A stretch of 36,551 nucleotides of DNA from Escherichia coli (lineage in GTDB: Bacteria > Pseudomonadota > Gammaproteobacteria > Enterobacterales > Enterobacteriaceae): the NCBI RefSeq assembly GCF_003334765.1, contig NZ_QOWT01000037.1; one strand, 5' to 3'. Below, piece after piece: positions 16,068-36,551 of this stretch. A program made the translations under genes and the position numbers. The notes beneath the pieces are model-generated. The model worked only from the letters and a program-made list of their open reading frames with translations. It was not told the DNA's origin and did not search any database. The number at the start of each line of letters is the position of its first letter. Position 1 is the stretch's first letter.

Positions 16068-16571
16068 ATGAAATGGTGCAAACGTGGGTATGTATTGGCG
16101 GCAATATTGGCGCTCGCAAGTGCGACGATACAGGCAGCCGATGTCACCATCACGGTGAACGGTAAGGTCGTCGCCAAACCGTGCACGGTTTCCACCACCA
16201 ATGCCACGGTAGATCTCGGCGATCTTTATTCTTTCAGTCTGATGTCTGCCGGGGCGGCATCGGCCTGGCATGATGTTGCGCTTGAGTTGACTAATTGTCC
16301 GGTGGGAACGTCGAGGGTCACTGCCAGCTTCAGCGGGGCAGCCGACAGTACCGGATATTATAAAAACCAGGGGACCGCGCAAAACATCCAGTTAGAGCTA
16401 CAGGATGACAGTGGCAACACATTGAATAGTGGCGCAACCAAAACAGTTCAGGTGGATGATTCCTCACAATCAGCGCACTTCCCGTTACAGGTCAGAGCAT
16501 TGACGGTAAATGGCGGAGCCACTCAGGGAACCATTCAGGCAGTGATTAGCATCACCTATACCTACAGCTGA
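16068..16571 (+). CDS. fimG: type 1 fimbrial minor subunit (adaptor)
   Basis: 167-aa ORF MKWCKRGYVLAAILALASATIQA... Confidence 0.95.
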   Translation: MKWCKRGYVLAAILALASATIQAADVTITVNGKVVAKPCTVSTTNATVDLGDLYSFSLMSAGAASAWHDVALELTNCPVGTSRVTASFSGAADSTGYYKNQGTAQNIQLELQDDSGNTLNSGATKTVQVDDSSQSAHFPLQVRALTVNGGATQGTIQAVISITYTYS

Positions 16572-17634: not shown

Positions 17635-17662
17635 GAGCCTGCCAATGGCAGGCTCAGGTGCT
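17635..17662. terminator. stem-loop between convergent fimH and gntP (possible terminator)
   Basis: gagcctgcc-aatg-gcaggctc hairpin, followed on the plus strand by aggtgctctttta; the U-tract is weak. Confidence 0.3.
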
Positions 17663-17665
17663 CTT

Positions 17666-19009
17666 TTACGCTACCATGCTAATAATCAGCACAATAATCA
17701 GCCCAACCACGGAGTTGACCAGCTCCAGCAGACCCCAGGTTTTCAACGTGTCTTTTACTGACAGGTCAAAGTAACCTTTGAACAACCAGAATGAGGCATC
17801 GTTAATGTGGGTGAGGGTGTTGGAACCCGCAGCCGTCGCCAGTACTAGCAGCGCCGGATTCACGCCAACCAGCTGACCAGTTGCTGGATCAAGGATTGCT
17901 GCACTGATAATCCCGGCGGCGGTCATCGCTGAAACCACACCCTGACCCGTCGCCAGACGAATCAGTACGGTGATCAGCCATGCCATGATGTAGGGCGAGA
18001 TATTGCCGTGGGACATCAGCATGCCGATGGTGTCGCCGATGCCGGTGTCGATGATGGTCTGCTTCAGCACGCCACCTGCACCGATGATCAGAATCACCAT
18101 TGCAATGCTTTTCACCGCGCTTTCAAAAGCGTTCATTACCCACTGCATATCGTGCCCGCGCGCGGTGCCAAAGAGTACGAATGCAACCACCATCGCAATA
18201 AACATTGCAATCGGCGAGGAACCGATAAAGTTAACCACTTCCCACGCAGGGGTATCTTTTACCAGCCAGATATTGGCGATGGTGGTAGAGATCATAATGA
18301 TCGCCGGGATCAACGGCACCAGAATCGAAACGCCGAAAGAGGGCAGATTATTCATATCTACCGGTTGATCTGCTTTCAGGAATGATGGCGTTGGGCGCTC
18401 AAGATTGCCGAGGAACTTCGGCAGGATCAGACCTGCGCAGATGACACTTGGGATCGTCACCAGTACGCCATAGATATAAACCATCCCCATATCCGCGCCA
18501 TAAGCATTCACCAGCGCCACCGGACCCGGCTGCGGTGGGAACAGTGAATGTGCGGTAGTGGCAGCTGCTACTGCCGGGATCGCCAGTTTCAGGAACGGAA
18601 TTTTAGCTTCGGCGGCAATAACAATAACCAGCGGTGCTAACATGATAAAGGCCACTTCATAGAACATCGCCAGACCGAAAATCAGGCCGATGATAATCAC
18701 CGACAGCTGTACATAACGCAGACCGAGACGTGCCAGCAGCGTATGCGCTATCTGGTGAGCCGCGCCGGAGTCGACCATCAATTTACCGATGACCGCACCG
18801 AACACCACGATGATAGCCAGTTCCCCCAGCGTGTTGCCGAAGCCCGCTTTCATGGTGTGCAGCAGCGACATCAAATCCATGCCCGCCAGCATCCCGACGG
18901 ACAGCGCCGCCACCAACAAGGCCACCATTGAATTGATTTTGAACTTCAAATTCAGTACCAGCATCAGACCAATGCCGAATACCACCCAGAGAATGTTAAG
19001 CACATGCAT
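17666..19009 (-). CDS. gntP: GntP-family permease (gluconate/fructuronate transporter)
   Basis: 447-aa polytopic membrane [38 protein letters not shown]... Confidence 0.95.
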
Positions 19010-19170
19010 AACGTTTTACCTTACCTGGTTGAACCGTTGTTATTTTGGGCGACATGTTATGTAAATTGGTCAACCATTGTTGCGATGAATGTCACATCCT
19101 CTGATCAATAACCATCGATTACCTTTTGCTGCAATTTGCAGCAACAACCAGGAGAGTGAAATTCTTGTGA

Positions 19171-19186
19171 TGTGGTTAACCAATTT
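19171..19186. promoter_or_regulatory. candidate UxuR/ExuR operator
   Basis: tgtGGTTAACCaattt contains the palindromic TGGTTAACCA core resembling the UxuR/ExuR consensus (AAATTGGTATACCAATTT), about 165 bp upstream of uxuA; TTGACA follows at 19198-19203. Confidence 0.5.
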
Positions 19187-19348
19187 CAGAATTCGGGTTG
19201 ACATGTCTTACCAAAAGGTAGAACTTATACGCCATCTCATCCGATGCAACGCCACGGCTGCGGTCTGGTTGTTCATCCGGATACCTAAACAACTCCAGGG
19301 TTCCGCGTCTCTTTGCTGTGGAACCCACTATGTGAAAGAGGAAAAATC

Positions 19349-20533
19349 ATGGAACAGACCTGGCGCTGGTACGGCCCAAACGATCCGGTTTCTTTAGCTG
19401 ATGTCCGTCAGGCGGGCGCGACTGGCGTGGTTACCGCTTTGCACCATATCCCGAACGGTGAAGTATGGTCCGTAGAAGAGATCCTCAAACGCAAGGCTAT
19501 CGTTGAAGATGCAGGCCTGGTGTGGTCTGTCGTAGAAAGCGTGCCAATTCACGAAGATATCAAAACCCACACTGGCAACTATGAGCAGTGGATCGCTAAC
19601 TATCAGCAGACTCTGCGCAACCTGGCGCAGTGCGGTATTCGCACCGTGTGCTACAACTTCATGCCGGTGCTCGACTGGACCCGTACTGACCTCGAATACG
19701 TGCTGCCAGACGGCTCCAAAGCTCTGCGCTTCGACCAGATCGAATTCGCTGCATTCGAAATGCATATCCTGAAACGCCCAGGTGCGGAAGCGGATTACAC
19801 CGAAGAAGAAATTGCTCAGGCAGCTGAACGCTTCGCCACTATGAGCGACGAAGACAAAGCGCGTCTGACCCGTAACATCATTGCCGGTCTGCCGGGCGCG
19901 GAAGAAGGGTACACCCTCGACCAGTTCCGTAAGCACCTGGAGCTGTACAAAGATATCGACAAAGCCAAACTGCGCGAAAACTTTGCCGTCTTCCTGAAGG
20001 CGATTATTCCGGTTGCCGAAGAAGTTGGCGTGCGTATGGCTGTTCACCCGGACGATCCGCCGCGCCCAATCCTCGGCCTGCCGCGCATTGTTTCTACCAT
20101 TGAAGATATGCAGTGGATGGTTGATACCGTAAATAGCATGGCGAACGGTTTCACCATGTGCACCGGTTCCTACGGCGTGCGTGCTGACAACGATCTGGTT
20201 GATATGATCAAGCAGTTCGGTCCGCGTATTTACTTCACCCATCTGCGCTCCACCATGCGTGAAGATAACCCGAAAACCTTCCACGAAGCGGCGCACCTGA
20301 ACGGTGACGTTGATATGTACGAAGTGGTGAAAGCGATTGTTGAAGAAGAACACCGTCGTAAAGCGGAAGGCAAAGAAGACCTGATCCCGATGCGTCCGGA
20401 CCACGGTCATCAGATGCTGGACGACCTGAAGAAGAAAACCAACCCAGGTTACTCCGCAATTGGTCGTCTGAAAGGCCTGGCCGAAGTTCGCGGTGTCGAA
20501 CTGGCGATCCAGCGCGCTTTCTTTAGCCGTTAA
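19349..20533 (+). CDS. uxuA: D-mannonate dehydratase
   Basis: ORF 19313..20533; ATG at 19349 ([26 protein letters not shown]...) preceded by aagagga; 394 aa. Confidence 0.95.
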
Positions 20534-22074: not shown

Positions 22075-22216
22075 CTAACTGATTACCCTACAGACTTACT
22101 GGTCAATCAAACTGATATTTGGTTGACCAGTTTTCGTTTTTTTGCCCACCTGTACGTGCCAACTTCCAGTGCTAATGGTATAGTTTGAGATTAACAGGGG
22201 CCGTAAAATTGCCCGT

Positions 22217-34999: not shown

Positions 35000-36232
35000 T
35001 CACTGCTCCTCTGCCAGCTCGGCAGCCTGATGTTGGCGCACGCGATTAAGCAATCCCGCCAGGGTGAAAACGACGATAACGCCCGCCACGACGGCTAACA
35101 GATGAAACGGCAAGCGACCGCCGTTAAACCACAGCCACCGGCCGATTTCGACCGAGACAGACATCACCATCAGGATCACCATATTCAGCGATGCGGAGAC
35201 GGTCCCTTTCGGTAAGTTATTGGAAAACAGCGTAAAGCGGAATAAGGTCGGGAAGATCAAACCAATCCCGAAAGCATACAAACTGGTGCCCAGCACCGAC
35301 CACAGCCATACGTGCGGTGACAGCAGATTGCCGATAATCAACAGCGCGAGGCCAACCAGTTGAATGGGTACGGCACGCCAGATAAAGCGCGGTTCGGTCG
35401 GATCTTTAACGAAACGCGCCACGATGGCATTCGCGACAATCACCGCGCCGAACACCGGAACCTGTGTCCAGGCGAACTGCGAGGTCGTTAAGCCGCCTGC
35501 GTCAATCAGGATCACCGGCGAGACAGCCACCCAACTCATCATTGGGATATAGCTTAAAGAGATGGTTGCTGCACCAAAGAGGAACTGCCGATTGCAAAAG
35601 ACATTACGAAAATCGCGCAAGACGCTTTTGGCGCTAAATGAAACCGCGCCGCGCTTCACCGTCTCTGGCATCGCCAGCAGTAAGCCAACAAATGAGATAA
35701 AACCCATAATCGCAATGATGGCAAAAAGGACTTTCCAGTGTACAAAGTGCATCAGAGCTGCGCCGGAAAGCGGGCCGATAATCGGCGCAATCAGTACGAT
35801 GGAGGTGATAATCGCCATCAACCTGATCCCTTTTGTCTGGCCGAACGCCTCCTGCACCGTGACATAACCAACGGTGGCAATAAAACAGATACTGGTGCCC
35901 TGAATTGCACGCGCGATAAGAAACTGTGTCATAGACGTTGTGAACATTGTCGCAGCGCAGGCAAGGGTAAATATTAGCGCCCCGGTAATCAGCACCGGCC
36001 TGCGGCCAATCCTGTCGGAAAGCGGCCCCAGCAGCCACTGTAACGCCATACCGCCCGCGAGATAGAGACTGACGGCTGCCGGGGCCAGACTGACATCGGC
36101 ATTAAAATCACGGACCACATTAATGATCCCCGGCTGAATCAGGTCCGTCGACAGGTACGCGGCAAAATCATACAAAATCAACGCCATCGGGAAAAACAGC
36201 GTGGCGGCATGCGTTGCTTTTAATCCCGCCAT
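35000..36232 (-). CDS. mdtM: MFS multidrug efflux transporter
   Basis: ORF 35000..36259 (419 aa); the ATG at 36232 ([26 protein letters not shown]...) gives 410 aa; the ATG at 36259 has a stronger SD (taaggtga) and remains an alternative. Confidence 0.9.
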
Positions 36233-36551
36233 TAAGCCTTTACCAAAATGGTTATTCATCGTTCACCTTATTCGCTATATATCGCCATATATAGCGATGT
36301 TTTAGGCAAAGAACGACTTTTGCGCACGCTATTTTTTCATGCTTGTTTAAGACGTAATCCCGTAAGAGATAAACCTATCAGGAGAGATATTTATCAAACC
36401 ATTTCAGTGTCCTTTGCCAGGCAAGATCGGCGGCAGATTTGTCATAACGGGGCGTGGAATCATTATGGAATCCGGGTAATGCTGCCAACTTACTGATTTA
36501 GTGTATGATGGTGATTTTAAGGTGCTTGCGTGGCTTCCATTTCCATCAGAT

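Follow-up and report, generated by a model that had tools for sequence, protein, structure and literature searches.

The hexuronate regulon (uxuAB, gntP, uxuR) is controlled through operators of UxuR and ExuR, regulators that belong to the FadR subfamily of the GntR family. A survey of GntR-family motifs gives the gap between GT and AC as 2 nt in UxuR sites and 3 nt in ExuR sites (PMC4494728). The single genomic SELEX peak of purified UxuR is the spacer between gntP and uxuA, where binding is lowered by glucuronate; the resolution of this peak is the spacer, not a single box (PMC5934670). The pair gntP-uxuAB has also been listed among divergent pairs with multiple CRP sites (PMC3105977), TGCGATGAATGTCACA has been given as the CRP ChIP-seq site for the gntP/uxuA peak in ETEC (PMC4287617), and OxyR sites are ascribed to both gntP and uxuA in PMC6389858, with reference to Zheng et al. 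(2001). The gntP/uxuA region is one whose overall regulation is already known from long study. E. coli also has quasi-palindrome template-switch hotspots, at which an existing hairpin-capable repeat seeds a cluster of substitutions that makes one flank an exact reverse-complement copy of its partner. A different kind of dyad is found in CytR operators, where inverted or direct TGCAA-containing repeats lie between tandem CRP sites that make contact with CytR and have a spacing of about 52-53 bp. To our knowledge, neither gntP nor uxuA is a CytR target.

We analyzed a window of 36,551 nt of the E. coli chromosome, in which gntP and uxuA diverge from a 339-bp spacer (Table 1). Both genes are assigned by NCBIfam equivalog models, as is uxuB, which comes after uxuA, and gntP is likewise the annotation of this gene in the RefSeq genomes that we fetched. 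The spacer corresponds to MG1655 4551297-4551635 and is found in 5405 of 5426 complete E. coli genomes. For comparison, uxuA loci were fetched from 80 species; among these, gntP is divergent from uxuA in Escherichia and Citrobacter only, and an alignment of the Escherichia and Citrobacter spacers consists of conserved blocks with sharp edges. A metagenome pattern aimed at non-E. coli haplotypes gave 0 matches, and a broader second pattern gave 120 loci. The original prediction had placed two palindromes between divergent gntP and uxuA, at 19126-19144 and 19173-19182; the positions are right as read from the sequence, and the equivalog models support the two genes.

Table 1. Genes, regulatory sites and repeats of the gntP-uxuA locus, in window coordinates
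Feature	Position	Strand	Support or conservation
gntP CDS (fructuronate/gluconate permease)	17666-19009	-	NCBIfam NF007459 equivalog, 908 bits
Putative box C, TGGT-TGA-ACC, GntR/FadR-type dyad, GT-N3-AC (ExuR-type spacing)	19026-19036		Conserved in Escherichia and Citrobacter
Box A, AAATTGGTCAACCATTG, predicted gntP-proximal UxuR-type operator (GT-N2-AC)	19063-19079, centre 19071.5		Core invariant in all Escherichia and Citrobacter loci
CRP site 1, TGCGATGAATGTCACA	19081-19096, centre 19088.5		CRP PWM 14.2 bits, rank 1 in the 36.5-kb window
Linker between CRP sites 1 and 2, 69 bp	19097-19165		Length conserved, sequence not
Perfect 9-bp inverted repeat, TTGCTGCAA-T-TTGCAGCAA	19126-19144, centre 19135		Read from the sequence
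CRP site 2, TGTGATGTGGTTAACC, overlapping box B	19166-19181, centre 19173.5		CRP PWM 10.8 bits, rank 6 in the window
CRP site 2 and box B together, TGTGATGTGGTTAACCAATTT	19166-19186		Conserved block in the Escherichia/Citrobacter alignment
Box B, ATGTGGTTAACCAATTT, uxuA-proximal UxuR-type operator	19170-19186, centre 19177.5		Invariant in Escherichia and Citrobacter
TTGACA, inferred uxuAB -35 hexamer	19198-19203	+	In a ~40-bp block starting GGTTGACATGT, near-invariant between Escherichia and Citrobacter
Putative box D, ATGT-CTT-ACCA, GT-N3-AC (ExuR-type spacing)	19203-19213		Inside the uxuA core promoter, between -35 and -10
uxuA CDS (mannonate dehydratase)	19349-20533	+	TIGR00695 equivalog, 793 bits

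The second of the two palindromes, TGGTTAACCA, forms the core of box B. This box is an A/T-flanked TGGT-N2-ACCA dyad, and the GT-TA-AC within ATGTGGTTAACCAATTT gives it the 2-nt spacing of UxuR sites, so that it shows no difference from the operators of the hexuronate regulon. Taken alone, TGGTTAACCA is not statistically remarkable, since a perfect 10-bp palindrome like it arises in 28% of spacers simulated with a first-order Markov model; its significance comes from conservation. Box B is unchanged in four Citrobacter species and in all Escherichia lineages, and boxes of the ATTTGGTTAACCAATT type that score at least 12 of 14 are found upstream of uxuA at 19 of the 80 loci, against a mean best score of 8.8 in shuffled sequence. 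Genera with a site like box B upstream of uxuA include Cedecea, Shimwellia, Erwinia and Enterovibrio. Given this layout, the conservation across genera and the UxuR SELEX peak in the spacer, TGGTTAACCA is, as far as sequence can assign it, the core of the already known uxuA-proximal UxuR operator, which overlaps a CRP site. The resemblance to a UxuR/ExuR box that had been suggested for this palindrome is therefore borne out by its dyad, by its conservation across genera and by the SELEX peak.

Box B appears to be part of a larger arrangement. The spacer is best explained as the shared control region of two divergent promoters, both activated by CRP and repressed by UxuR/ExuR, and built from two mirror-image modules. 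The module facing gntP would comprise box C, with ExuR-type spacing, box A, of UxuR type, and CRP site 1. The one facing uxuA would comprise CRP site 2 overlapping box B, then the -35 hexamer, with box D inside the core promoter. When set beside CRP-dependent divergent pairs that have one CRP site per promoter, this spacer has two CRP-type sites 85 bp apart, one facing each gene, and each of them adjoins or overlaps a repressor box. Given the overlap, a repressor bound at box B would be expected to occlude CRP site 2. The CRP matrix behind these assignments was built from 106 ETEC ChIP-seq CRP sites with the gntP/uxuA entry left out (PMC4287617). The score of CRP site 2 falls in the range of the training sites of the matrix, and its TGTGAT half is kept in Citrobacter. 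Box A is one of four matches in the window to TTGGTNNACCAA with at most one mismatch, box C adjoins the gntP ribosome-binding site, and box D in Citrobacter has invariant half-sites, its two differences from E. coli lying inside the three central bases (CTT to AAT or CAT). The original prediction had not included the gntP-proximal module at 19063-19096, where box A is followed by the strongest CRP site of the window, nor had it included boxes C and D. The main value of the present analysis is a tidier annotation, with little significance beyond it. One modest gain is a clean layout in which CRP sites, UxuR-type boxes and boxes of ExuR-type spacing are each present twice.

The transcription start of uxuA would lie near 19233, judging from the conserved -35 block and from a CRP site that would then stand at about -61. 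Two candidate -10 elements point to a gntP start at about 19030-19047, which would place CRP site 1 at about -41.5 or -58. A scan of the spacer for consensus promoters and terminators returned none; real CRP-dependent promoters were missed too, the uxuAB promoter because its -10 is weak. The best match to the OxyR consensus in the spacer (19192-19228, 13/20) lies over the uxuA core promoter and overlaps box D, and only nine window positions (the top 0.03%) reach this score. Its location fits reports that OxyR represses uxuA and gntP. About 79 nt of the uxuA leader (about 19249-19327) are present in all Escherichia and absent from Citrobacter; this segment has two predicted hairpins and, as far as long matches show, is single copy in E. 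coli genomes, and folding of the whole leader is not significant (z = -1.7).

The first palindrome, the perfect 9-bp inverted repeat, is like the UxuR/ExuR operators only in its dyad symmetry and its location, and has no GT/AC core. It corresponds to MG1655 4551413-4551431 and is thus a conspicuous perfect palindrome present in E. coli K-12 itself. It lies inside the linker that separates the two CRP sites, some 80-115 bp upstream of both inferred starts, and is for this reason probably outside the transcripts. Its centre is 63.5 and 42.5 bp from the centres of the two UxuR boxes, or about 6 and 4 helical turns, so that a protein bound to it would face the same side as both boxes. At the level of long matches, the region of the repeat (71-bp and 30-bp queries) is single copy in E. 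coli genomes. The window as a whole holds nine perfect 9-bp inverted repeats with a loop of up to 10 nt where 1.8 are expected, a count in which overlapping registers are counted apart and which comes down to about six distinct loci.

The linker provides the background against which the repeat has to be judged. The centres of boxes A and B are 106 bp apart in every Escherichia haplotype and 104-105 bp apart in Citrobacter, and the linker between them cannot be aligned between Escherichia and Citrobacter, nor among the Citrobacter species. Five other Escherichia lineages were compared with E. coli: outside the repeat, the linker differs by 28-32% in four of them and by 8% in the closest, Escherichia sp. 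93.0816. The same comparison to E. coli gives 7-28% for the 4-fold degenerate sites of uxuA and 2-6% for the operators and promoter. The flanks of the repeat change at least as fast as the 4-fold sites in all but one of the five lineages. It may be that only the length of the linker is constrained, with the UxuR boxes held 104-106 bp apart, or about 10 helical turns. That this distance is kept across a freely evolving linker suggests, and would fit, cooperative or looped repression.

The state of the repeat differs between lineages. In E. coli it is exact, in a 30-mer context, in 5281 of the 5405 genomes (1087 + 4194, ~98%), with C19142T, G19138T and A19144C as rare variants, and in Escherichia sp. 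93.0816 it is intact (0/19 changes). E. albertii has 1/19 changes and keeps eight of the nine core pairs, with T.G in place of the ninth. Two cryptic-clade haplotypes (L099-L101 with L191, and L186) keep seven of the nine, with 2/19 changes from E. coli in the cryptic clade. Haplotypes that lack gntP (6EVA, UTME-7, ET201, L171, L001) keep six or fewer, and two of them have 4/19 and 5/19 changes; in Citrobacter the repeat is absent and nothing comparable stands at its position. A comparison of 14 Escherichia haplotypes shows no case among the nine core pairs in which both sides are altered. At the partner positions 19129 and 19141, for example, C-G, T-G, T-T, C-T and C-A are all seen and T-A never. 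The covariation score is 0.077, which is no higher than the mean of the shuffles (0.083) and was reached by 402 of 500 of them. The idea that the repeat is retained only alongside gntP was rejected, as a gntP-bearing clade (L099-L101, L191) has only seven of the nine pairs, and a link to gntP is countered also by the gntP-less haplotypes, which keep box A and CRP site 1 intact. Three E. coli strains, 6EVA, UTME-7 and ET201 (L094, L095, L096), and locus L001 are without fim and gntP, and nanM there adjoins uxuA. In all four, the left half of the spacer is strongly divergent (~30% in the linker) and the right half is typical of E. coli, which suggests a recombined segment.

At this position the palindrome of E. 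albertii is longer: ACTCTTTGTTGCAA-T-TTGCAGCAAAGAGT (L002:2774-2802) has arms of 14 bp, of which 13 positions match. The flank on the right, CAAAGAGT, reads as the exact reverse complement of the one on the left, ACTCTTTG, and differs from all other lineages at six of seven adjacent positions. The same extended form is found in three metagenome contigs (L107, L137, L148). We estimate at about 1 in 1000 the chance that independent substitutions would produce five additional complementary pairs, and a single hairpin-templated (template-switch) mutation probably explains the pattern simply, although the extension could instead reflect selection for a longer dyad. The case is like the quasi-palindrome template-switch hotspots of E. 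coli in that a substitution cluster would have copied one flank, as its exact reverse complement, into the opposite one, seeded by an existing hairpin-capable repeat. What sets E. coli itself apart from its relatives is likewise a set of changes that make the dyad perfect. This process is deduced here from a comparison of species.

On balance, we lean towards the view that the 9-bp repeat is a young, lineage-specific quasi-palindrome with no conserved regulatory role, and that it owes its perfection to mutational bias. It would have arisen as a quasi-palindrome specific to Escherichia, been perfected in the E. coli lineage and been lengthened in E. albertii, with both the perfecting and the lengthening probably brought about by hairpin-templated (template-switch) mutation. 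Read in this way, the E. coli/E. albertii pair looks like a natural example of a palindrome sharpened and lengthened by templated mutation.

Besides the helical phase that the repeat shares with the UxuR boxes and the possibility of selection in E. albertii, three observations speak against so neutral an origin. Only 1.4% of 339-bp spacers simulated with a first-order Markov model contain a perfect inverted repeat of 9 bp whose loop is no longer than 10 nt (P ~0.014). The repeat is as invariant within E. coli as the operators are, exact 30-mers at two operator controls being found in 5277 and 5300 genomes; as operators and repeat are each exact in ~98%, conservation within E. coli cannot discriminate between them. 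Finally, between E. coli and E. albertii the repeat has changed at 1 of 19 positions and its flanks at 16 of 50 (Fisher p = 0.027), and the repeat is also more conserved than the 4-fold sites (binomial p = 0.017). It is conceivable, if on the whole unlikely, that the repeat is a functional element of recent date in E. coli and its closest relatives, either an operator for a further regulator or a structural element that responds to supercoiling. If so, the divergent gntP/uxuAB promoters would receive a lineage-specific input, and the longer palindrome of E. albertii would be the outcome of selection for a stronger dyad.

As an operator, the repeat would have been acquired in the Escherichia lineage as the site of a further dimeric regulator, for example a CytR-like protein acting on inverted TGCAA half-sites, and would provide a further input to gntP and/or uxuA. 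We treat this possibility as a doubtful one that still deserves to be weighed. All three observations just described argue for it, as does the placement of the repeat, which has a CRP site on either side and shares the helical phase of both UxuR boxes, and its TGCAA-T-TTGCA core resembles CytR half-sites. The arrangement is nevertheless not typical of CytR-regulated promoters: the two CRP centres (19088.5 and 19173.5) are 85 bp apart and not 52-53 bp, and the spacing of the TGCAA half-sites is atypical. The core has one match in the window where 1.36 are expected by chance, neither the motif nor its half-sites are enriched elsewhere in the window, and a full-text search of the papers covered, for the 19-mer, the 11-mer core and the half-sites, returned only unrelated primer sequences. 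Moreover, at least four further Escherichia haplotype groups with intact operators, CRP sites and promoter have just six or seven of the nine pairs of the dyad, uncompensated, and the dyad is absent from Citrobacter despite the same architecture.

Known regulators were considered as well. The repeat was rejected as a CRP site, for which the pattern scored was TGTGA-N6-TCACA: its centred 16-mers score -12.1 and -11.1 bits in the matrix, against 14.2 and 10.8 for the two CRP sites, and at -12 bits it is unlike the CRP sites of divergent promoter pairs. The OxyR consensus is ATAGnTnnnAnCTAT-N7-ATAGnTnnnAnCTAT; no high-scoring position overlaps the repeat, the best match being the one at the uxuA core promoter, and an OxyR site was likewise rejected. 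Comparison by eye with consensus sequences for Fis, IHF, Lrp, NsrR, LexA, the lux box, the LacI family and sigma-54 found none that fits in register and at the critical positions.

The repeat might act instead as DNA, through a cruciform-prone or flexible structure that tunes the coupling of the two divergent promoters, either from the negatively supercoiled zone between them or from the apex of a UxuR-mediated loop. We consider such a role improbable. Its position between divergent promoters would suit it, as would a linker that is conserved in length and free in sequence, and the 14-bp arms of the E. albertii form surround an A/T-rich centre. The hairpin energies of the single strands also lie well below those of shuffled sequences (-10.9 and -11.9 kcal/mol in E. 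coli, -17.5 in E. albertii). However, arms of 9 bp with a centre of 1 nt are short for a cruciform to be extruded stably in vivo, most other lineages and Citrobacter have no comparable palindrome at this position, and pairing has not been kept by compensatory change.

A function in RNA, as a regulatory hairpin in a long gntP or uxuA leader or in an upstream or antisense transcript, is very improbable in our estimation. Either strand can form a stable hairpin with an 8-bp stem and a 3-nt loop (z = -3.4 and -2.6), and the single core mismatch of E. albertii is a G-U wobble on the plus strand. Set against this, the repeat would lie upstream of both starts, as deduced from the conserved promoter elements and the CRP positions, and it has no promoter-like or terminator-like site, T run, Rfam family or covariation. 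The Rfam search covered 18900-19450 with E-values up to 10 and found no match. An intrinsic terminator was rejected for the same stem, which is stable and is followed by no T run, with no terminator-like site in the scan. An mRNA leader hairpin, one of the options first offered for this repeat, is hence unlikely. Another of those options, a second repressor site for UxuR or ExuR, can be virtually dismissed: the repeat sits inside the UxuR-bound spacer in helical phase with boxes A and B, but TTGCTGCAATTTGCAGCAA is without any of the GT or AC dinucleotides that define GntR/FadR-type operators (PMC4494728), and the spacer has four better boxes, of which the real additional ones are those at 19063-19079, 19026-19036 and 19203-19213.

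Several other sites were noted elsewhere in the window. At 17635-17655, where fimH and gntP converge with their 3´ ends, the two genes are separated by a perfect GC-rich inverted repeat, GAGCCTGCC-AAT-GGCAGGCTC, which is probably the stem of a bidirectional terminator; the terminator scan did not call it because it has no T run. An AT-rich palindrome, TCGCTATATAT-CGCC-ATATATAGCGA, is located at 36272-36297, 13 nt upstream of the minus-strand ORF 35000-36259, and presumably resembles sites of the ModE type. The second-ranking match to the CRP matrix in the window (AGTGATTAGCATCACC, 16541-16556, 12.5 bits) falls inside ORF 16068-16571, just upstream of a fimH-like ORF. Finally, a UxuR-type box, TTGGTTGACCAG, lies at 22119-22130, between uxuB and the gene that follows it, presumably uxuR, a location that would fit autoregulation.
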